From a virus: DNA of 39,348 bases. The translations under genes were made by a program, and so were the position numbers. Positions within the stretch are counted from its first letter, which is position 1. Each line of letters begins with the position of its first letter. Below, piece by piece: positions 1 through 14,614 of the stretch. Under the pieces are notes generated by a model that worked only from the letters and a program-made list of their open reading frames with translations, was not told where the DNA came from and did not search any database. Location of the stretch: UHGV virus genome UHGV-0146801; one strand, 5' to 3'.

Positions 1-9
1 TTAGCAAGG

Positions 10-29
10 TTGTGTACATTTGTACACAA
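10..29. promoter_or_regulatory. Perfect palindrome TTGTGTACA-tt-TGTACACAA upstream of rcdA; candidate TetR-family operator
   Basis: 9-bp inverted repeat with 2-bp spacer read directly in sequence, about 20 bp upstream of the ATG at 50. Confidence 0.4.
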
Positions 30-49
30 TTGCAGAGAGAGGAAATGAC

Positions 50-586
50 ATGCGTCGCGCTAACGATCCGCAACGGCGAGAAAAAATTATCCAGGCCACG
101 CTGGAGGCGGTGAAACTTTACGGAATACATGCTGTTACGCACCGCAAAATTGCTACCCTTGCCGGGGTACCGTTGGGATCGATGACCTACTATTTTTCAG
201 GAATTGATGAGTTGTTACTGGAGGCGTTCAGCAGTTTTACTGAGATCATGTCCCGGCAATATCAGGCATTTTTTAGCGATGTTAGTGATGCTCCGGGCGC
301 ATGCCAGGCTATCACCGATATGATCTACAGCTCACAGGTTGCAACGCCGGATAACATGGAGCTGATGTACCAGCTCTACGCGCTGGCTAGCCGAAAACCG
401 CTATTAAAAACGGTAATGCAAAACTGGATGCAGCGCAGTCAGCAAACGCTCGAACAATGGTTTGAACCCGGAACCGCCCGCGCGCTTGATGCGTTTATTG
501 AGGGGATGACGCTGCATTTTGTCACCGACCGTAAGCCGCTATCGCGCGAGGAGATTTTGAGGATGGTTGAGAGGGTTGCAGGGTAG
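50..586 (+). CDS. rcdA: TetR-family transcriptional regulator RcdA/YbjK (host gene)
   Basis: Translation [49 protein letters not shown] shows a TetR HTH and matches E. coli RcdA as recalled; the six-frame ORF starts at a TTG at 20, but ATG at 50 follows a GAGAGAGG RBS. Confidence 0.8.
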
Positions 587-602
587 TAGATAAGTTTTAG
601 AT

Positions 603-616
603 AACAAAAAACCCAT
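603..616. repeat. Left copy of 14-bp direct repeat AACAAAAAACCCAT (candidate prophage att core)
   Basis: Identical 14-mer at 36521..36534; lies between the host rcdA stop and phage int. Confidence 0.55.
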
Positions 617-690
617 TTATGTAAACGGGTTAATGAAAACAATAAGTTAGAGCAAAAACAATAAGTTGGGTTGGTGGTCAGTGGTGGTGA

Positions 691-1743
691 TTACGGGGTA
701 ATGCCAACCGCTGCCGCCACTTTGTCGCCACTTGGCAGCGTTGCCAGAGGATTGAAACGGAGCGCCGTTTCCAGATGATCCGGTGCCAGATGTGCGTAAC
801 GCATAGTCATTTTTATATCGTGGTGTCCGAGAATTTTTTGTAAGGCCAGAATGTTTCCACCCGACATCATGAAGTGCGCCGCAAACGTATGGCGCAGAAC
901 GTGTGTGAGTTGACCGCGAGGGAGCACGATAGACGTTTTTTCCATCACGGATAAAAATTGAAAATAGCAGTCTGTAAAGAAATTGAACCCATCAAGCGCC
1001 ATGATCTCTTCGTAAAGCTCTTTACTTATAGGGATGCTTCTGTTTTTCTTCCCCTTCGTTCTGACAAAGGTAATTCGGTATTTGGTCACCTGTGAGCGGG
1101 TAAGATTTACGGCTTCACGCCAGCGTGCGCCTGTGCTTAAGCATATCTTAACTACCAGTGCCAGAATTGGGTCCTGACGTTTGCAATCAGCCAGCAATTC
1201 AACAATCTGCTCATGGGTAAGCCATGCCATCTCTTTTTCTGCGATGGTGAATTTTCGCATGTTCTCCAGTGGGTTCGGATACGACCATTCGCCCAGACGG
1301 GATAGTTCGCTAAAAACACTACTTAGATAGCTTTGCTCCAGGTTAATGGTGACCGGGCTTGCTCCTTTCTTCCATTTCTCGCTGAAGTAGATCTCGCCTG
1401 TCAGGCGTTTATCTCGATAGTGGGCAAACATTTTAGAGGTGAGATCGGTTGCAAGAGGATTGCCCAGAGCGTCAACCATCAACAGCAATTTGTCATAGAC
1501 ATGCTGCCCAGCTGTCAGAGATTTACCATGTAGTTTGAACCATAGCTCAACCACGTCTTTCAGTGTTCGACGATCCACTGATTCACCCAGCCAGGGCTTT
1601 GCTTCGGTTTCTTCCATCGTGTGGCGCTCAAAAGCCAGAGCTTCGCCTTTGGTGGCGAATTGTTTACGCACCCGACGCCCACTACGTCCGGCGGGGTAAC
1701 ATTCGCAAAGCCATTTTCCTGTGGTGAGTTTTCGTACTGCCAT
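691..1743 (-). CDS. int: Tyrosine integrase, P2-type
   Basis: 350 aa; C-terminal catalytic region with HVLRHTFA...LGHHDIKMTMRYAHL (R..HxxR..Y signature); adjacent to att repeat. Confidence 0.9.
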   Translation of the reverse strand: MAVRKLTTGKWLCECYPAGRSGRRVRKQFATKGEALAFERHTMEETEAKPWLGESVDRRTLKDVVELWFKLHGKSLTAGQHVYDKLLLMVDALGNPLATDLTSKMFAHYRDKRLTGEIYFSEKWKKGASPVTINLEQSYLSSVFSELSRLGEWSYPNPLENMRKFTIAEKEMAWLTHEQIVELLADCKRQDPILALVVKICLSTGARWREAVNLTRSQVTKYRITFVRTKGKKNRSIPISKELYEEIMALDGFNFFTDCYFQFLSVMEKTSIVLPRGQLTHVLRHTFAAHFMMSGGNILALQKILGHHDIKMTMRYAHLAPDHLETALRFNPLATLPSGDKVAAAVGITP

Positions 1744-1829
1744 AATAAAGCCCTCATATCAGAGGGCTAAATTTAACTGTATGTTTGACCAGTGGTCAAT
1801 GTATGGTTTAGTTTATTCAAACAATGCTT

Positions 1830-3347
1830 TTAATCAAATGATGTGGCCAGTTCAATTAATTCAATGTAATTATGTAAGGCATAAAAAGATGTATTCAGTC
1901 CATTCTCTATAAGGGCTCCTTGCAAATACTTTATAGCTGTATCACCATCAATAGGGCCTTGTTGAGATTTAATCATTAGTGAATTTTGCCCATTGTTTTT
2001 TATACTTGATTTAAGTATTTTTATATTATTGATAAAATACAATGCAACATCTAAGTAATTTATTAATGTTAAACTTATTTTGGGCTCGATCTGTGAGATG
2101 AATAATCTACTGTTCGCCGTTGTATAGATATAATTGACACCTATTCTTTGCTGATTTGTATCAAGATTTAATTCAAGGATGGCTTGAGAAACACCTTTTA
2201 AATTGGAGCTTTGCTTTATCGAATCAGTGAAACGTTGTGCTGCATTTCTTCGACCAATTAGTCCATCTATAATTTGACGATCCTTATCATATATAATCAT
2301 TAGCGAAATTATAAAAATATAATCTACTTTCTTTTTGACTAAATCAGATTTAAGAATGTCTATTAACCTTTCAGTATTTCGGATTGAGTCTCTTAGATTT
2401 AACCCAAATGCTTCAAATACGTTGGAAATATTTATTGAAAAGTCTTCTAATGTTGCGGTTAGTGGGTATGTTTTTGATGTGATATTTTCAAACTCGGTAC
2501 CAATATAATCACCAACAACACCATTAATTAAATCTTTAAGTTCAGGTTGTTTTAAAGTAAATCTTCTATGAAAAAAACGGCCTAAATAGTCATTTGCGGA
2601 AAAATCATTACCGTAAACATTCTTGATTGAATGTTGTAATTGATCTGTGTCAGTAGCAATAATAAAGACAAAATTTTTAATATCGAATATATGTTTAACA
2701 ATCTCTAAAAGAGAAATTGCATAATCTGGCCTGCATCTGTCTAATTCATCTATAAAGATAAATATAGGACATGAAAAACTATTTTCATATGCCAACCTAG
2801 ACCATAACGTAAGTTCTTTTTTTAATACCTTAATGCTCTTCAGTTTTTCCTGGTGTTCCTTCAGCATTATTAATGAGGCTTCTTTGGCTATATCACCTAC
2901 GTTATCTACTCCTGCATAAGTCTTGATTAGGCCAGATATGATTTCAGGTAGAACACCTTTTGTAAAGCGTCCGATAGCATGGCCGCTTTGTATCAATCGA
3001 GCATCAAGTTTTCCTGCATATGTTTGCAATTGTTGTGACAAAGAAGAAAAAAGGGTTAAAAATGCATCATCAGAAAAGTCTTGCTTCCAGGCATCAATGT
3101 AAACGCATGGGTGTGCATCTTTTATTGAGTTATAAAATCTCTTTATGAAAAAACTTTTACCAGCTCCCCATTCTGCATTAAGGTTGATTACCGTGTTGTT
3201 CTTTTGCCCCTTTTCCTTAAGATAAAAATATAGATATTCTGCATAGTGTCTCCGATTAAGTTTGTCTTTGGAGAGAATTTCCTCTTCGTCGTCTAATATA
3301 AAGGTAGTTTCTTCATCCCAGTTCCAATTACAATCACCACATTTCAC
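1830..3347 (-). CDS. KAP-family P-loop NTPase (cargo, candidate defence gene)
   Basis: 505 aa; Walker A with KAP-type tryptophan NAEWGAGKSFF and Walker B IFIFIDELDRCRP (DELDRC motif); AT-rich coding sequence. Confidence 0.8.
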   Translation of the reverse strand: MKCGDCNWNWDEETTFILDDEEEILSKDKLNRRHYAEYLYFYLKEKGQKNNTVINLNAEWGAGKSFFIKRFYNSIKDAHPCVYIDAWKQDFSDDAFLTLFSSLSQQLQTYAGKLDARLIQSGHAIGRFTKGVLPEIISGLIKTYAGVDNVGDIAKEASLIMLKEHQEKLKSIKVLKKELTLWSRLAYENSFSCPIFIFIDELDRCRPDYAISLLEIVKHIFDIKNFVFIIATDTDQLQHSIKNVYGNDFSANDYLGRFFHRRFTLKQPELKDLINGVVGDYIGTEFENITSKTYPLTATLEDFSINISNVFEAFGLNLRDSIRNTERLIDILKSDLVKKKVDYIFIISLMIIYDKDRQIIDGLIGRRNAAQRFTDSIKQSSNLKGVSQAILELNLDTNQQRIGVNYIYTTANSRLFISQIEPKISLTLINYLDVALYFINNIKILKSSIKNNGQNSLMIKSQQGPIDGDTAIKYLQGALIENGLNTSFYALHNYIELIELATSFD

Positions 3348-3372
3348 TATGAAGTCTCCATGAAAAATTTAC

Positions 3373-4296
3373 TTAATGTAAACAACTTATAATAACTTTT
3401 GCAATAAACTCAATGTCTGTAAGCGAACATTCAAAAGAGTGATTTTTGGATGAAATATAAACTCGTCCTTTAGGTAGTCGAGTTATCATTCTAAATGAAT
3501 TCTCTCCATCAATATTTACTAGCCACTTACCATCATGTACATCTTTAAAACCCATTTCACATATTAATTCAGAGTCTTCGGTAGATACTACGAATGCATT
3601 TTTTAAATTGGAAGGTAGAAAACATGGGTCAAATAAATATGAGCCATCATTTATTAACTTGCCATTGATTAATACTTTTTTCACTAATGTTAAAGTATCT
3701 TTATTTTTTGCGTTTTTCATTTCTCCTGTACCAAATGAAATCCATTCAATAGAATGGCCCGTTTCTATTGCACACTGCAAAACCCAGTCTGCAGGAAAAA
3801 TGTCACGCATGTATCGTGTGGCTAATGTGCTTTTTGAAATACCTAGGTGATCAGCTAATGCTTGGCGCGTTTTGTAACCGTAAGCCTCGACAATTCGTTC
3901 TATTGTTGCCTTACCCCCTCGGTTAAAATTCATGAGTTTTTCATTATCGAACTTTATAGTGGGAATGTATACTTCATTGCAAAGGCCATTAACGGCATGT
4001 TTTTCAGAATATTGCTCTGATGAAGGAGCAGTATCTGAACCAAGAACTAACCATTCAATTGATGCTCCTGTTTCTATGGAACATATAACAACCCAATCTG
4101 CAGGAAAGGTATTACGTGCATATCTGTTGGCCATAGTACTTTGGGAAATACCTAGATGATTACATAATGCCTGTCGTGACTTGAAGCCATAGGCTAGGAG
4201 TATACGCTCAATAACTTTTTGCCCTCCACGATTCTGCATGACTATTGCTTTCAGATCGTTTTTGATATGGCTAAATTTTAATTTTTGAGTTGACAT
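3373..4296 (-). CDS. CI-repressor paralog with two tandem N-terminal HTH domains and a CI-like C-terminal domain
   Basis: 307 aa; two copies of the I(E)R(I/M)(L/V)xAYG(F/Y)K(S/T)RQAL..HLGISxST(M/L)A.RY.R..FPADWV block, and a C-terminus that aligns with the adjacent CI (LPKGRV vs LPGGRI, FLPSNLKNAFVV vs FLPSTLKNPFVI). Confidence 0.75.
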   Translation of the reverse strand: MSTQKLKFSHIKNDLKAIVMQNRGGQKVIERILLAYGFKSRQALCNHLGISQSTMANRYARNTFPADWVVICSIETGASIEWLVLGSDTAPSSEQYSEKHAVNGLCNEVYIPTIKFDNEKLMNFNRGGKATIERIVEAYGYKTRQALADHLGISKSTLATRYMRDIFPADWVLQCAIETGHSIEWISFGTGEMKNAKNKDTLTLVKKVLINGKLINDGSYLFDPCFLPSNLKNAFVVSTEDSELICEMGFKDVHDGKWLVNIDGENSFRMITRLPKGRVYISSKNHSFECSLTDIEFIAKVIISCLH

Positions 4297-4346
4297 ATTT
4301 TTTACACCACAACAAATGCTTTACCAAGCATAAAAACATTCCTATA

Positions 4347-4922
4347 TTACTCAAAGTACTTAACTGTTATGGTTATAATTTTTCCAATAATTTCGATTTC
4401 TTCTTTTTTACATTCGAAAGCCCTATTTCCACCTTCAACTAAGATTCTTCCACCAGGTAAACGAGTGATATCGCGGATTGTTACTTCGGCATCAATACTT
4501 ATTACCCATTTGCCGTCACGAATATCGTTAAACTCTTTATCGCAAATAAAAACGGAATTGTTATCGGTGATTACAAACGGATTTTTGAGCGTAGATGGTA
4601 GAAATTCTTTATCGAAAATATAAAAACCATCTTCCTGCAAGGTTCCATCAGATAATACATATTTAACGACTTCCATAGTATTTGTATTACCTGAAGTTTG
4701 CTTTGAACCATGTCCGGTCGTGAGCCAGTTAAGCGAGGCGCCCGTTTCAAGTGCGCACTGGATTACCCATTCAGCAGGGAATGAGTCACGCATATAGCGT
4801 GTGGCGAGAGTACTTTTAGAGATTCCTAAGTGATCGCACAACGCCTGTCGAGTCTTGAAGCCATATGCTTCTACCATGCGCTCTATAGCGCCTCGTCCGC
4901 CTTTCTCCAAATTCATGGTCAC
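4347..4922 (-). CDS. cI: Immunity repressor CI, phage 186 type
   Basis: 191 aa; N-terminal HTH (AYGFKTRQALCDHLGISKSTLATRY) and C-terminal oligomerisation-like domain; divergent from apl/cII as in 186. Confidence 0.85.
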   Translation of the reverse strand: MTMNLEKGGRGAIERMVEAYGFKTRQALCDHLGISKSTLATRYMRDSFPAEWVIQCALETGASLNWLTTGHGSKQTSGNTNTMEVVKYVLSDGTLQEDGFYIFDKEFLPSTLKNPFVITDNNSVFICDKEFNDIRDGKWVISIDAEVTIRDITRLPGGRILVEGGNRAFECKKEEIEIIGKIITITVKYFE

Positions 4923-4940
4923 TCCAAGTGAACTTTTGTC

Positions 4941-4969
4941 TTGACGATTTCATTATGCGATCGTATGTT
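4941..4969 (+). promoter_or_regulatory. Candidate lytic promoter pR (-35 TTGACG, 17-bp spacer, -10 TATGTT) in the cI-apl switch region
   Basis: Sigma70-like hexamers with canonical spacing read in the 119-bp cI/apl intergenic region. Confidence 0.4.
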
Positions 4970-5041
4970 TATGATGTTCACAAAATACAAACGATCCGTA
5001 TTCGTCCTGATTAATCAACATTAAACGAGGAATGTTGCATC

Positions 5042-5263
5042 ATGAAACATAACATTTCAATCACTCTTACCACGCCTCATGTGACTATTGAACGTTATAG
5101 CGAGCTGACAGGGCTATCCATCGATACTATCAATGACATGTTGGCTGATGGACGTCTTATCCGTCACCGTCTGCGGAAAGATAAAAAACGCGAAAAAGTG
5201 ATGATCAACATAGCAGCCATGACCGTTGATGCGCTTTCAGAATGCAATCTAAACCTTAATTAG
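5042..5263 (+). CDS. apl: Apl/Cox-like excisionase-repressor
   Basis: 73 aa small basic protein, first gene of the rightward operon facing cI; position as in phage 186. Confidence 0.6.
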
Positions 5264-5289
5264 TTCGATTCTGAAATACATCAGAGGCA

Positions 5290-5805
5290 TTGACCATGTT
5301 TGATTACCAAGTTTCCAAACATCCACATTTTGATGAAGCCTGTCGTGCATTCGCATTGCGCCACAACCTGGTGCAACTGGCAGAACGTGCTGGCATGAAT
5401 GTGCAGATTCTGCGGAACAAGCTGAACCCAGCTCAACCTCATTTATTAACCGCACCAGAAATCTGGCTGCTTACCGATCTGACTGAAGATTCAACGCTGA
5501 TAGATGGTTTTCTGGCACAGATTCACTGCCTGCCATGTGTACCGATTAATGAGGTAGCAAAAGAGAAACTGCCGCATTACGTCATGAGTGCAACCGCAGA
5601 GATCGGGCGTGTTGCTGCAGGTGCGGTATCTGGCGATGTAAAAACCAGTGCAGGTCGTCGTGATGCTATCAGCAGCATTAACTCTGTAACACGACTGATG
5701 GCGCTGGCTGCTGTTTCATTGCAGGCCCGTTTACAGGCTAACCCTGCGATGGTGAGTGCAGTTGATACCGTGACTGGCCTCGGTGCTTCATTCGGTTTGC
5801 TGTGA
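5290..5805 (+). CDS. cII: CII-like lysogeny establishment regulator (186 type)
   Basis: 171 aa; position immediately after apl; alpha-helical N-terminus, size matches 186 CII. Confidence 0.6.
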
Positions 5806-5812
5806 GGTACTT

Positions 5813-6109
5813 GTGCTGAAGAAAGAACCATCATTTGCATCGCTGCTGGTAAAACAAAGCCCGGCAATGCATTACGGTCACGGCTGGATCATGGGTGAGG
5901 ATGGTAAACGCTGGCATCCATGTCATTCACAAGATGAATTGCTGTCTGAATTGACCACGAGGAAACGGAGAAAGTCAAAATGTATGCAGCGGAAAGTGAA
6001 GTGGTTTATCAGTTTCGTTACAGAGGGGAGAGTTATTCAGTACCTGAAGATGATTTGCTCTGTTGTTATCCGTCGTTGTCGGGCGATGGCAGTTACTTTT
6101 TCACGCTAA
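5813..6109 (+). CDS. Possible Fil-like (filamentation) protein; GTG start
   Basis: GAGG RBS 5 nt upstream of GTG 5813; N-terminal part (KEPSFASLLVKQSPAMHYGHGWI...KRWHPC) looks protein-like, but the 3' part overlaps the next ORF and looks low quality. Confidence 0.3.
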   Translation: MLKKEPSFASLLVKQSPAMHYGHGWIMGEDGKRWHPCHSQDELLSELTTRKRRKSKCMQRKVKWFISFVTEGRVIQYLKMICSVVIRRCRAMAVTFSR

Positions 6110-6226: not shown

Positions 6227-6568
6227 ATGGCAATTAATGGCGCTGCGGCGACTGTTCCATTAAGCCCCGGTGAACGCCTGAATGGACTTAATCACATTGC
6301 GGAGTTAAGGGCGAAAGTATTTGGCCTGAATATTGAGTCAGAGCTTGAGCGGTTTATTAAAGATATGTGTGATCCACGGGATATCAATAACGAACAAAAT
6401 AAACGAGCACTGGCTGCCATATTCTTTATGGCAAAAATTCCAGCTGAACGTCATAGCATCAGCATTAATGAGCTGACCACTGACGAAAAGCGGGAGCTGA
6501 TTAAAGCAATGAATCATTTTCGTGCAGTGGTGAGCTTATTTCCCAGACGGCTAACCATGCCGAATTAA
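6227..6568 (+). CDS. Hypothetical early protein
   Basis: 113 aa ORF in the early operon. Confidence 0.5.
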   Translation: MAINGAAATVPLSPGERLNGLNHIAELRAKVFGLNIESELERFIKDMCDPRDINNEQNKRALAAIFFMAKIPAERHSISINELTTDEKRELIKAMNHFRAVVSLFPRRLTMPN

Positions 6569-6629
6569 CCAATTAATGAAAATCATGGCGTAAACCCGCC
6601 GGGCATCCCTTTATCTAAATTCAGGAGAA

Positions 6630-6869
6630 TTGATTATGCGTAATATTGAAACCCTCACGACTAAAACCGGACCGGACGACGCAGGGCTTAATATTTTACT
6701 GACAGAGGCTCGTCTGGAAGAACGCCGGGCAAGGGCTGAAGCAATGGCAGCTCGCCTTGATAGCCTGGCGTGTCATATCACATCCAGCCAGCTAAACCAC
6801 GTCGAAGCGGCAGAACTGCTGCGTGTAACTGCTGAAGCAATCCAGAACGAAGCGCAGGAGATCCACTAA
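6630..6869 (+). CDS. Small early protein (DUF2732-like as recalled)
   Basis: 79 aa ORF with AGGAG RBS; stop overlaps the next start (ATG 6869). Confidence 0.5.
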   Translation: MIMRNIETLTTKTGPDDAGLNILLTEARLEERRARAEAMAARLDSLACHITSSQLNHVEAAELLRVTAEAIQNEAQEIH

Positions 6870-7096
6870 TGGCTGATGCAATGGATCTCGTACAGCAGCG
6901 CGTTGAAGAAGAACGCCAGCGCCATATTCGTGCTGCCCGTGCCAAAACACCGGGCGTGTCTCGTGTGCTTTGCATTGAGTGTGAAGCGCCAATTCCGCCA
7001 GCACGACGCCGCGCCATTCCGGGAGTGCAGCTTTGCATTACCTGCCAGGAAATCGCAGAGCTGAAAGGCAAACATTACAACGGAGGTGCTGTATGA
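6869..7096 (+). CDS. TraR/DksA-family C4 zinc-finger protein
   Basis: 75 aa with CIECEAPIP...CITCQ (CxxC-N17-CxxC). Confidence 0.7.
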
Positions 7097-7395
7097 CAAG
7101 GGCAGTGCGTATCCATCAATTAAAAATTGCACCTAAGTATTTCAACGCTGTGGTTGCAGGTCAAAAGACGGCTGAACTTCGTAAAGACGATCGTGGCTAT
7201 AAAGTTGGTGATGTTCTTTCTCTTTGCGAATGGAAGCATGGCGTATTTACGGGTAGGGAATGGGCCGCTGTTATCTCTCATGTGCTTCCGGTTAATGACG
7301 TCATGGCAGTTTCAGAACAATGGGTGATGCTATCAATTCGCCCATTAACCCCATTAGAAGCTTTAGGATATGTTATTGCAGGAGGTGCTGTATGA
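7093..7395 (+). CDS. Small PUA/ASCH-like protein (DUF3850-like as recalled)
   Basis: ATG 7093 after GGAGG RBS; ATGA overlap with upstream stop; 100 aa. Confidence 0.5.
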
Positions 7396-10812: not shown

Positions 10813-11001
10813 ATGCAGGACTATTTTTTGGAGTCTTTGAAGCTCCAGCGCATTGATTTTTTTCTTAAGCTTGTAGCGGCTAGTGAGTGTAGTGATGAAG
10901 AGAAGGGGCTGGCTCTGCAGTGGGTTTCTGAATTGACTGATGAACTCATGGCAAAAATCAGAAGCCACGAATACAACCGCTCAATGGATGTCATCAGCTG
11001 A
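10813..11001 (+). CDS. Small SOS-regulated protein, function unknown
   Basis: 62 aa ORF with AGGAGG RBS directly downstream of the LexA box. Confidence 0.5.
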   Translation: MQDYFLESLKLQRIDFFLKLVAASECSDEEKGLALQWVSELTDELMAKIRSHEYNRSMDVIS

Positions 11002-11011
11002 GGTGACTTTT

Positions 11012-11245
11012 ATGCGCATTGAAATAATGATCGATAAAGAGCAGAAGATTAGCCAGTCTACCCTGGACGCCCTTGAATCCGAGCTTTACCGCAATCTGCG
11101 CCCCCTGTATCCCAAAACGGTAATTCGCATTCGCAAAGGTAGCTCTAACGGTGTGGAACTAACCGGACTGCAACTGGATGAAGAAAGAAAACAAGTGATG
11201 AAAATTATGCAGAAGGTGTGGGAGGACGACAGCTGGCTGCATTAA
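11012..11245 (+). CDS. DinI-family protein (Tum-like antirepressor candidate)
   Basis: 77 aa, MRIEIMIDKEQKISQSTLDALESELYRNL resembles DinI/MsgA; position and LexA control parallel the phage 186 tum module. Confidence 0.7.
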   Translation: MRIEIMIDKEQKISQSTLDALESELYRNLRPLYPKTVIRIRKGSSNGVELTGLQLDEERKQVMKIMQKVWEDDSWLH

Positions 11246-12291: not shown

Positions 12292-13521
12292 ATGCTAGTT
12301 GCATTCAGTTTAGAAAATTACAAGAGCTTTCGCGAAAGACAGGTTCTTAGTTTTGCTTCCTCAATTGGGGATGAGCATCCTGAACATATCGTGACATTAG
12401 CGAATGGTTTAAGAGTAAACAGATTTGCCGCATTAATAGGCGGAAATGGTGTTGGTAAAACACAATTAATAAATGCTATTACTGAATTTGCAAATTCAAT
12501 TCATAGTGACACATTACACAAATTGCATATGCCTTTCCTTCTAAATAAGGAATGTCGTAACAAACCTACTTCCTATGAAGCGATACTGATTGATGAAGAG
12601 CAAAAAAACTTCGTCCGTTATGGTGTGTCAGTTTTAAATGAAGTTATTGTAGATGAGTATTTATACATTAGACCGATAAGAAAAAATGCAAGGGAACAAT
12701 GTATTTTTATTCGCAATGAAAATGGGTTGGTTTTCAAAAAGCCCGACTTAAAAAAATACGAGTCGTTGATTAATCCTGTCTTAAGAGAAAGTGGAGCTGT
12801 TGTAACTTTTGCAAAATCTTTAGAAATTGATGCTCTTGTTGAAACCCAACGCTGGGCATTAAAACAATTGCCTTATTACTCTGAAAAATTCAAAAATCCA
12901 AGTCTTAAATTTGTTGAAGGACAACTTAAGCGCCAGTTATCAGGTGAGGAAGGAAATGAAAAATTAAATGAGAGTGGTCAAAGAATTTTAAATACCTATA
13001 ATGAAATGGTTATTCAGTCGCCGCTGCATATAGATAAAGTTGAATTTGTAAGATTTGGCGAAGATAATGAGTATAAATTTGTTTATCTCATAAAAAATGA
13101 TGATGGTGATTTTACTAGAATAGGCCCTGACCGTAGGGATGAATTTTTTTCCCAAGGCACACTAAATGTTTTAACATTTTTAGCAATATTGATTTGGGCT
13201 AGTGAATATGATTTTACACTTTATGTGGATGAAATAGATTCATCTATTCACTATTCTTTGGCAAGTGCACTAATCAAAAAAATATTTGATAAAACCTGCC
13301 GTAAAAATGGTGTGCAGTTTATTATGTCTACACATAATATTCCTTTATTAGATGATGTGTTTAGAAGAGATGAGCTTAATATTATAGTCAAGGATTCATC
13401 TAAAGCGTCGATAATAACTAATGCTACGGTATTTTCTGTAAGGAAAGATGCTAAAGTGTCTGCCAAATATTTACGTGGCGAATTTGGATTAGTTCCAGCT
13501 TTTCTTGATATAAAAAACTAA
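12292..13521 (+). CDS. ABC/OLD-type P-loop ATPase (AAA_15/21-like)
   Basis: 409 aa; Walker A GGNGVGKT, signature-like FSQGT, Walker B/D-loop LYVDEIDSSIH, H-loop MSTHN; AT-rich. Confidence 0.8.
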   Translation: MLVAFSLENYKSFRERQVLSFASSIGDEHPEHIVTLANGLRVNRFAALIGGNGVGKTQLINAITEFANSIHSDTLHKLHMPFLLNKECRNKPTSYEAILIDEEQKNFVRYGVSVLNEVIVDEYLYIRPIRKNAREQCIFIRNENGLVFKKPDLKKYESLINPVLRESGAVVTFAKSLEIDALVETQRWALKQLPYYSEKFKNPSLKFVEGQLKRQLSGEEGNEKLNESGQRILNTYNEMVIQSPLHIDKVEFVRFGEDNEYKFVYLIKNDDGDFTRIGPDRRDEFFSQGTLNVLTFLAILIWASEYDFTLYVDEIDSSIHYSLASALIKKIFDKTCRKNGVQFIMSTHNIPLLDDVFRRDELNIIVKDSSKASIITNATVFSVRKDAKVSAKYLRGEFGLVPAFLDIKN

Positions 13522-13534
13522 GCGTGAGAAAAAC

Positions 13535-14614
13535 ATGACTAGCTTTGCTTATGATGGTGATATTTTGACACCTAATAATTTAGAAATTACATCCTTCGCC
13601 ACATTGAAATCAAAAATAAGAGAGCGAAGAGTATGTGTTTTTCTCGGAGCAGGATTTTCTAAAGCCTGGGATGACAAATACCCATTGAGTAATGAAGTCT
13701 TTTCCATCTCTGAAGACGAAGCATTAGAAAATATTGATGAGTATGGTTTTTTTTCTTTGTTCGACAGTCTTAAATTTAAATGGGCGGATGCTAATGCAGG
13801 TTTAGATGACAAAGCTAATGTTTTCAAGAGTTTTAAATATGCATTGGATGTTTATAAGCGATATCCAAGTTTATTGCCGTCGTATCTTGATAGGCATACG
13901 CTTGAGTTGTTTGAGGCACAAGTAAAACTATATGTAAAAAATAAGTTTGCAAAAAAAATACCGGCAAATGATTTAAAGCTAAGTCAAACTGCAAAATTTG
14001 GGCAGAATAAAAGGAATATTATTTCTTTCTTTAAGAGTTTACAGGAAGCTTCAGCACTGGATGTAGTCACAACAAACTACGATATAGTTATTGATAAAGT
14101 GCTACATCATGCATTCCCTGAACGTTCAGTTAATCGGGGTTTTCCTGTGCATCATAATAATATATTAGTGTGTCCTCAGCCTAAAGGTATAGGTTTGTAT
14201 AAGCTTAATGGAGGATTTGAGGTTGTTGCTGCAAGGGATGGTTTTAAAATAGATTATGATTCATTATTAAACGCAAAAGTTGTTCCAAATATTATCTTGC
14301 CTTCAAATGAACAAGACTATGGGGATAAATACTTTAAGTCAGCTTTTGTGAAATCCTCTACCCAGTTGAGACAAGCAGATCTGTTGATCTTTATAGGTTA
14401 TTCTTTCCCAAAGGAAGACTTTATTATTAATTTTCTTTTGAAGACTTTTCTGGATGGCGATAGTACTGAAAAAGAGACTGTTATTATTGGGCGAAATAAA
14501 TCTAGTGCTATTGAGATACACCAGCGTGCGTGTGAAGTTTTTAAAGAACTAAATGATAAATCTGCACTGTATTATTTCGGTGGTAGTTTTTCTGATTTAT
14601 GTAAACAATGTTAG
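13535..14614 (+). CDS. SIR2-like (DHS-like NAD-binding fold) protein, candidate NADase effector
   Basis: 359 aa; Rossmann motif VCVFLGAGFS, TTNYD motif (VVTTNYDIVID), C-terminal LLIFIGYSFPKED; 13 bp downstream of the ATPase. Confidence 0.75.
   Translation: MTSFAYDGDILTPNNLEITSFATLKSKIRERRVCVFLGAGFSKAWDDKYPLSNEVFSISEDEALENIDEYGFFSLFDSLKFKWADANAGLDDKANVFKSFKYALDVYKRYPSLLPSYLDRHTLELFEAQVKLYVKNKFAKKIPANDLKLSQTAKFGQNKRNIISFFKSLQEASALDVVTTNYDIVIDKVLHHAFPERSVNRGFPVHHNNILVCPQPKGIGLYKLNGGFEVVAARDGFKIDYDSLLNAKVVPNIILPSNEQDYGDKYFKSAFVKSSTQLRQADLLIFIGYSFPKEDFIINFLLKTFLDGDSTEKETVIIGRNKSSAIEIHQRACEVFKELNDKSALYYFGGSFSDLCKQC

Follow-up and report, generated by a model that had tools for sequence, protein, structure and literature searches.

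A tandem helix-turn-helix CI repressor gene imported behind the resident cI of a 186-like prophage: a candidate second immunity determinant

UHGV virus genome UHGV-0146801, a stretch of 39,348 nucleotides (nt) called the window below, is a P2/186-like (Peduoviridae) prophage whose integration site lies beside rcdA in Escherichia coli. Its gene neighbourhood is that of coliphage 186, with int, cI, apl, cII, fil and gene A. Between int and the resident cI, here called CI191, the prophage carries a gene for a KAP-family P-loop nucleoside triphosphatase (NTPase) and a second CI-like gene, here called CI307, whose product contains two DNA-binding helix-turn-helix (HTH) modules in a single chain. 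Our results assign CI307 to a conserved family of tandem-HTH CI proteins of Enterobacterales, annotated throughout just as "phage repressor protein CI", and trace its arrival in this prophage to the import of a foreign block of DNA. We propose that it is probably a captured second immunity determinant, directed against phages of the tandem-HTH type and read from the resident operon. The genes and features of the locus are arranged as follows.

691..1743, minus strand: int, a lysogenic-side gene.
1806..4305: low-GC (guanine-cytosine) insert with the KAP and CI307 genes, delimited by blastn mosaic mapping against the collinear CI191-type prophage L094.
1830..3347, minus strand: KAP-family P-loop NTPase gene (Pfam KAP_NTPase, E 7.8e-46) matching PDC-S20, a candidate defence family of PADLOC (E 6.8e-78).
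3373..4296, minus strand: CI307, an intact tandem-HTH CI gene of 307 amino acids (aa) with an ATG start, identified by Pfam domains, structure match and alignment.
4297..4346: spacer of 50 nt from the CI191 stop codon to the CI307 start codon, characterized by blastn end points and sequence comparison.
4347..4922, minus strand: CI191, the resident single-HTH cI, 191 aa from GTG or 189 aa from the ATG at 4916 (the RefSeq start).
4923..5041: cI-apl switch region of the CI191 type, with a pR-like TTGACG-17-TATGTT at 4941-4969.
5042..5263, plus strand: apl-like gene, which opens the lytic operon, homologous to the open reading frame (ORF) that faces cI in all related loci.

After the apl-like gene, the plus strand continues with cII and the remaining early operon. 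Of 5426 complete E. coli genomes, 17 share the 3.4-kb region around CI307 at 99.3% nt identity or more. One of these carriers is the enteropathogenic strain E2348/69 (EPEC), for which RefSeq lists a "KAP family P-loop NTPase fold protein" and two "phage repressor protein CI" genes.

The initial annotation had read CI307 as two tandem copies of the CI HTH domain followed by a CI C-terminal domain, so that three HTH modules would lie within about 1.5 kb. Pfam, a structure match, an AlphaFold2 model and alignment all bear this out, at a level well above chance, the third module being that of CI191, and the gaps are as described, 25 nt from CI307 to the KAP gene and 50 nt to cI. Both domain families of 186-type CI proteins are present in CI307: Pfam matches PF07022 (Phage_CI_repr, E 3.8e-56) twice and PF16452 (Phage_CI_C, E 1.7e-25) once, while CI191 has one of each (3e-33 and 7.2e-27). 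The position typical of a 186-type CI, as first gene facing the switch, is occupied not by CI307 but by CI191. The structure of 186 CI (PDB 2FJR) aligns with CI307 residues 131-302 (E 1e-22; 2FKD, E 7e-7). In the AlphaFold2 model, residues 13-85 and 128-188 are helical and residues 202-306 are rich in beta structure (predicted local distance difference test, pLDDT, ~90); residues 92-119, with pLDDT below 50, are predicted to form a disordered linker. The chain can thus be divided into five parts, all encoded on the minus strand.

4237..4296: N-terminal extension, aa 1-20 (MSTQK...), common to tandem-HTH and solo h1-type CIs.
4033..4236: HTH1, aa 21-88, recognition helix ISQSTMANRYARN, nearly invariant across the tandem family.
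3931..4032: variable linker, aa 89-122, ~34 aa, the least conserved block of the family alignment.
3721..3930: HTH2, aa 123-192, recognition helix ISKSTLATRYMRD, with a recombination joint inside the module.
3376..3702: C-terminal oligomerisation-type domain, aa 199-307, PF16452, identified by Pfam and the 2FJR match.

Pairwise alignment gave 58-66% mutual identity for the HTH modules and 49% for the two C-terminal domains. HTH1 and HTH2 of CI307 are 60% identical; the CI191 HTH is 58-62% identical to HTH1 and 66-69% to HTH2, and the C-terminal domains agree at 48-49%. Residues 122-302 of CI307 align end to end with full-length CI191 at 56% identity. The HTH2 recognition helix is identical in CI191 and in the tandem CI of Klebsiella phage 4LV2017, and that of HTH1 differs from its 4LV2017 counterpart only by D62N, and functional solo CIs carry that residue too. 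Relative to the consensus of the tandem family, CI307 shows 9 mostly conservative deviations over 106 conserved columns.

As defined here, the tandem-HTH CI subfamily comprises proteins of 290-330 aa with an MST... N-terminal extension, HTH1 (ISQSTMANRYAR), a variable linker, HTH2 and a CI C-terminal domain, and two alignments place CI307 within it. A collection of proteins clustered at 90% identity contained 612 relatives; 45 of the best 120 clusters are 280-339 aa long and have the same architecture at 39-62% identity, and their hosts include E. coli, Salmonella, Klebsiella, Enterobacter, Citrobacter, Kosakonia and Edwardsiella. Since dozens of protein clusters from different genera show this same domain layout, the duplication cannot stem from a frameshift or a fusion of two genes. 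HTH1 (…ISQSTMANRYARDTFPADW…) and HTH2 (…ISKSTLA[TN]RYMRD…) are near-invariant in the family alignments, and the linker and C-terminal domain are highly variable. In a library of representatives at 50% identity, about 13 of the 150 best hits are of tandem length. All ten that were checked contain two PF07022 domains, together with PF16452 in nine (weakly in one) and Peptidase_S24 instead in one. Some proteins depart from the common plan. The distant relative P0254 (330 aa) has two Phage_CI_repr HTH domains and Peptidase_S24 (LexA-like self-cleavage) and lacks the CI C-terminal domain. P0053 and P0054, one of them from Edwardsiella tarda, are tandem CIs without the MST extension, and their first HTH resembles the CI191 type (…VSKSTLATRYMRDSFPAEW…). 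The sequences suggest that the tandem architecture may have more than one origin.

The genomic setting of these proteins was surveyed in 80 IMG/VR and 11 GTDB loci found by an HTH1 profile and classified with domain hidden Markov models (HMMs) built here. The HMM labels h1 and h2 misassigned some divergent single-HTH CIs (e.g. L099), and segment identities were used in their place; the GTDB loci held mostly solo h1-type CIs, IMG/VR being far richer. Outside the lineage of the window, the tandem CI is the sole cI in all cases (~50 IMG/VR loci with ~18 distinct switch sequences). In these loci cII and apl stand opposite the tandem cI, which is followed by variable cargo and then int. In the isolated phage 4LV2017 (Elveevirus), the 313-aa tandem CI (ARB15674.1) is likewise the sole CI-like gene, separated from an unannotated apl homologue by 88 nt, the conserved switch, at positions 3845-3932 of KY271398. 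Solo CIs of ~207 aa, with only an HTH1-type domain and the same N-terminal extension, also serve some phages as their single repressor, so that HTH1 must truly read operators and is no degenerate copy. Of the 5426 complete E. coli genomes, 224 (~4%), among them that of strain Combat13F7, contain the HTH1-coding region along with a switch of the tandem type, and 17 contain the cassette of the window. The combination of a 191-aa cI, a 307-aa tandem CI and KAP was found in the lineage of the window only (L002, L014-L018, L095-L100).

Comparison with L094, a prophage of E. coli CUVM3 at the same attachment site and with a single CI191-like cI, delimits what was imported. The two sequences match by blastn at 96.8% over window positions 1-1805 and at 92.9% over 4306-5968, and positions 1806-4305 replace ~293 bp of L094. 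The GC content of this insert is 29-37%, that of the backbone 45-50%. CI191 with its switch is 93% identical in nt sequence to the sole cI of L094, which occupies the same rcdA site. The imported gene is itself composite. Locus L102, with an operon of a 186-aa cI, KAP and int, is collinear with window positions 585-3903 at 72% nt identity (blastn), across int, KAP and CI307 from about residue 131 on. Phage 4LV2017, in turn, matches positions 3729-4304, the codons of CI307 residues 1-189, at 79% (blastn). At the protein level, HTH1 is 89% identical to 4LV2017 and 80% to the single HTH of the solo 207-aa h1-type CIs; HTH2 is 83% identical to 4LV2017 and 77-82% to the single-HTH CIs linked to KAP; and the C-terminal domain is 57-68% identical to these KAP-linked CIs, as against 30-41% to other tandem CIs and 40% to 4LV2017. 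The departures of CI307 from the family consensus fall mainly in the C-terminal half of HTH2 and agree there with the KAP lineage, which places an older recombination joint inside HTH2.

CI307 is thus a mosaic, in which the N-terminal extension, HTH1 and linker of the tandem family are joined within HTH2 to a cI-KAP-int lineage. The cI and KAP block entered the cI-int cargo hotspot of a CI191-type phage through recombination in or near int on one side and at an illegitimate joint 9 nt 5' of the CI307 ATG on the other, and lost its own promoter and operator region on the way. Local tandem duplication of cI, considered as another origin, is ruled out: the segments of CI307 are 77-89% identical to sole CIs of other phages, as against 48-69% to CI191, and the foreign block has clean boundaries. 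The description of CI307 as a paralog of the "true" cI was misleading in this respect, since the gene comes from a pre-existing tandem family, is itself the true and sole cI elsewhere, and arrived in a 2.5-kb insert.

The distal joint can be located precisely. The recombination junction lies at ~4305, blastn homology to L001 ending at 4304 and homology to L094 starting at 4306. Upstream of CI307 the conserved switch of the tandem family, with the layout CAT-GATGCAACATCTCCTATTGGCTTGTGGTGAGCCGGTATTAATCGTGAC-N6-TTCACAAAACGGAGAATAGGTTCACATAAAGAAT-ATG, has been replaced by 41 nt that normally follow a CI191-type cI. Three motif searches for the tandem-type switch (…TCGTGAC-N6-TTCACAAAACGGAGAATAGG…) found it neither 5' of CI307 nor anywhere in the window. 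In 4LV2017 a pR-like TTGACA-17-TATTCT overlaps the cI start, its -35 hexamer being made by cI codons 1-2. The window keeps the TTGACA hexamer on the plus strand at 4291-4296, in the first codons of CI307, and has lost the -10 part beyond the junction. CI307 would therefore have to be read from the resident cI operon, as the junction removed the switch of its family. It is preceded only by a weak GGTG Shine-Dalgarno-like element. A scan for consensus promoters and terminators found no minus-strand match between cI and CI307 or between CI307 and KAP, which is weak evidence, as the scan was at background overall (15 hits, 14.9 expected).

The switches of related phages show further features. At L001 3838-3866 it can be seen that, in tandem-HTH and solo h1-type phages, the cI codons ATG TCA A form an opposite-strand TTGACA -35-like hexamer. 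Overlap with a pR-like promoter would explain the near-invariant N-terminal Met-Ser (usually Met-Ser-Thr) of these proteins. Just 5' of the apl ribosome-binding site lies an inverted repeat (GGCT-TGTGGTG-AGCC, L001 3899-3913), which recurs in the S2-type, L099, L101, L102, L105 and L108 switches with covarying arms (AGCT...AGCT, GACC...GGTC) and is missing from the CI191-type switch of the window. The covariation suggests either that a hairpin is maintained in the leader of apl or that the palindrome is a site for a protein. By eye, an operator layout could be drawn in the tandem-family switch as symmetric GTGG/GTGA ... TCAC/TCAC elements, 20/12/20 nt apart and with the most variable bases in the central spacer, which would fit two chains reading two half-sites each. 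We do not claim this layout, since its outermost element falls in the loop of the covarying inverted repeat and 4-mers are frequent. At the other end of the insert, after the KAP stop codon and before int begins, a terminator-like hairpin (AGCCCTC-N6-GAGGGCT with a T-rich tail) is found at 1749-1768 on the minus strand, inside backbone sequence common to L094 and 4LV2017. It could separate the expression of cargo from that of int.

The comparison with L094 identifies CI307 as an extra repressor gene of foreign type, horizontally acquired within the insert 1806-4305 and placed beside the resident one. Its most likely job is to bind operators of incoming tandem-type phages, because its recognition helices match those of sole repressors and no switch of that type exists in the prophage. 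In the mechanism that we propose, CI307 would be transcribed in the lysogen as the second gene of a resident pL operon cI191-CI307-KAP-int. Acting in trans, it would bind the conserved operators of incoming tandem-HTH-type phages, and their occupancy would block the early promoter of the invader, resulting in heterotypic superinfection immunity. The immunity of the lysogen would thereby be extended to a second, common group of phages, with the KAP NTPase acting independently beside it as defence cargo. A second immunity determinant was one of three roles offered by the initial annotation and is the best supported of them. An intact member of a repressor family of foreign type is indeed present, and the direct effect on immunity is what we infer from it.

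Several points weigh against this proposal. The level at which CI307 is translated is uncertain, given the poor Shine-Dalgarno element and the 50 nt from the cI stop codon. Its C-terminal domain diverges from those of other tandem CIs (30-41% identity), and it may not oligomerise in the geometry that tandem-type operators require. As the HTH2 helix equals that of CI191, CI191 alone might already cross-react with tandem-type phages, or CI307 might act on the switch of its own prophage instead. Finally, the cassette lineage is young and nearly clonal (nt identity of 99.3% or higher between the 17 complete genomes). The segregating codons within it, 3 synonymous and 4 non-synonymous in a sample biased towards identical proteins, are too few for the ratio of non-synonymous to synonymous polymorphism (pN/pS) to show purifying selection. 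The intactness of CI307 may therefore only reflect its recency.

The last point leads to the strongest competitor of the captured-repressor proposal, namely that CI307 hitch-hiked in neutrally when illegitimate recombination recently imported KAP, contributes nothing and will decay. We regard this as unlikely, yet worth serious consideration. It would fit the uninformative polymorphism of a nearly clonal lineage, the loss of promoter and operators, the weak ribosome-binding site, and the routine dragging of cI sequence in hotspot swaps, with the C-terminal domain moving along with the cargo. It also has a precedent in the IMG/VR prophage L099, where cI-KAP is followed (6518-7376) by the truncated N-terminus of an int and by a cI split over three frames, beyond which come a set of PDC-M11-like cargo genes and a complete int. 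L099 is a decayed counterpart of the double-cI arrangement of the window. As the displaced cI has become a frameshifted pseudogene there, the intactness of CI307 is not automatic. The 924-nt ORF has instead retained all invariant residues of the family, its deviations being conservative or derived from the mosaic. The exact CI307 protein occurs in 416 blocks of the collection, each time as part of this cassette, and it has reached hundreds of assemblies without any interrupted copy among the contexts examined. Furthermore, L114 (CP123966.1, 4625776-4636699) keeps int-KAP-CI307-cI-apl though the genes beyond apl are non-phage (beta-lactamase fold, DUF421). The other flank of L114 is not rcdA, and what carries its module may be the remnant of a prophage or some other element.

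The shared HTH2 helix also bears on the possibility that CI307 serves at home, as a co-repressor or modulator of the prophage's own switch, through HTH2 or through mixed oligomers with CI191, giving steadier lysogeny or an altered sensitivity to antirepressor. Besides the helix, the 49% identity of the C-terminal domains, GTGAAC/GTTCAC-type elements in both switch types and a DinI/Tum-like ORF in the prophage are consistent with such a role. However, the same switch runs with CI191 alone in L094 and relatives, and the backbone is unchanged, with no accommodation of a second repressor. That chains with 49% identity would form mixed oligomers is speculative, and the hypervariability of the C-terminal domains rather favours specificity of oligomerisation. 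Altogether we consider this role improbable.

The DinI-like ORF lies at 10940-11245 on the plus strand (PF06183, E 1.2e-22) and is overlapped by a preceding 62-aa ORF in another frame (10813-11001). Together, these ORFs may represent a Tum-type SOS antirepressor, split in two or mis-started. Such a candidate bears on whether induction inactivates both repressors.

The short distance between CI307 and KAP had suggested to the initial annotation that the two are expressed in a coupled manner and that CI307 might regulate the NTPase, or serve as a decoy or sensor. The wider distribution of KAP does not support this. In at least eight further types of prophage its homologues, at 46-70% identity, lie between cI and int, directly after a single-HTH cI or some way beyond it. 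In L099 and L101-L109 this is an ordinary sole single-HTH cI, and in L108 and L109 the two genes are 1-1.7 kb apart. Tandem CIs, for their part, adjoin unrelated cargos: Old (E 8.7e-234), a PD-T4-2 pair, PDC-M11-like sets, membrane proteins, and an ATPase with Old/AriA-type matches (probably ATPase-TOPRIM). KAP is thus not bound to any specific, required CI-like partner. In a recent survey, the integrase-primase interval is described as a minor defence hotspot of P2 (PMC13586616). Because KAP follows ordinary cI genes elsewhere and the interval is a general cargo hotspot, the 25-nt gap reflects the packing of an operon.

In loci L001-L107, the identity of cI C-terminal domains tracks the cargo (median 45% with the same cargo as against 35% with different cargo), and among KAP-linked CIs it reaches 58-68%. 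Swaps anchored in int and in the conserved HTH-coding DNA would make the C-terminal domain travel with the cargo. The correlation hence suggests linkage, hotspot swaps dragging the 3' half of cI along, and such movement helps to explain why C-terminal domains are hypervariable while HTH domains and switch are conserved.

A dedicated partnership of CI307 with KAP, whether CI307 acts as transcriptional regulator or as a decoy or sensor of an invader (e.g. of an antirepressor) that activates the NTPase, is the least supported of the alternatives and in our view hardly probable at all. In its favour stand the 25-nt distance, the constant co-occurrence of the two genes, and the 58-68% likeness of KAP-linked C-terminal domains compared with 30-41% for other CIs. 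This likeness is explained by the collinear descent of an int-KAP-cI block (~72% nt identity). Against the partnership speak the KAP genes behind sole single-HTH cIs, some of them at a distance, the diversity of cargos beside tandem CIs and the missing promoter-like site between CI307 and KAP. Nor did PADLOC offer a model matching CI307; KAP itself matches PDC-S20, which, going by its name, we take to be a single-gene candidate. For a decoy or sensor role we found no positive evidence. A related idea, which we consider very unlikely, is that a CI C-terminal domain and the KAP NTPase form a functional guard pair, CI serving as bait for an antirepressor or another repressor-targeting factor and its inactivation or sequestration triggering the NTPase. 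The sole hint is that KAP-linked C-terminal domains form their own similarity group (58-68% vs 30-41%), which linkage explains equally well. The KAP NTPase is cargo that was co-imported with CI307, not its partner.

The prophage carries a further defence-like locus in the main P2 hotspot after gene A. At 12292-14614, on the plus strand, a gene for an AbiLi/AriA-like AAA ATPase (PADLOC AbiLi, E 2.2e-51) is followed by one for a SIR2-like protein (PF13289, E 1.8e-8).

Our results indicate that the 186-like temperate phages of E. coli, Klebsiella, Salmonella and relatives include a sizeable group whose only immunity repressor is a CI with two different HTHs. A natural CI with twice as many, non-identical DNA-reading heads raises the question of how its operators are laid out and read. 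In addition, the prophage shows that the cI-int hotspot can pass on an entire repressor gene as cargo, along with a defence gene. If CI307 does confer immunity to the group of its donor, repressor capture would join the defence repertoire exchanged among P2/186-like phages.

The closest textbook relative is coliphage 186 CI, whose wheel is a standard model of cooperative repression. Its structures (PDB 2FJR, 2FKD) belong to the same HTH family, PF07022, and the same C-terminal family, PF16452, as CI307. In contrast to CI307, 186 CI has one HTH per chain, and its gene comes directly after the switch. An N-terminal extension, a second HTH and a disordered linker of ~34 aa are additional in CI307, and another cI separates its gene from the switch. 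A chain with two homologous HTH domains joined by a flexible linker and reading two half-sites has been engineered from 434 repressor. These single chains are artificial and without an oligomerisation domain, whereas tandem-HTH CIs occur in nature, retain the CI C-terminal domain, and have diverged HTHs (60% identity) with different recognition helices. The tandem CI of 4LV2017 has the same five-part architecture as CI307, and in both the MST codons overlap TTGACA. It faces apl across the switch as the only cI, while CI307 has no switch, carries a C-terminal domain of another lineage, and stands behind a resident cI. Searches of the literature for tandem-HTH repressors of the 186/P2 type, for 4LV2017 or Elveevirus and for the Pfam names returned no relevant description in the searchable literature.

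Outside this family, two systems invite comparison. Reve, a single-gene system with a KAP domain from a P4 hotspot, is reported to protect from phages (PMC13586616). The KAP gene of the window likewise encodes a KAP-family protein, and the comparison concerns the neighbour of CI307, not CI307 itself. Mycobacteriophage Mcgavigan carries a Bxb1-like repressor, horizontally acquired from another immunity group and additional to its resident system (PMC12700041). This extra repressor is dispensable for lysogeny and confers heterotypic superinfection immunity (PMC12700041). It belongs to an unrelated protein family and host, and its function was tested there, that of CI307 being inferred. Unlike it, CI307 lies directly behind the resident cI in the same operon and has a tandem DNA-binding module. 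Capture of a second repressor has thus been seen before; the novelty lies in a class of tandem-HTH repressors that serve as sole cI in a common phage group, and in the transfer of one of them, as hotspot cargo, to a place behind a resident cI.

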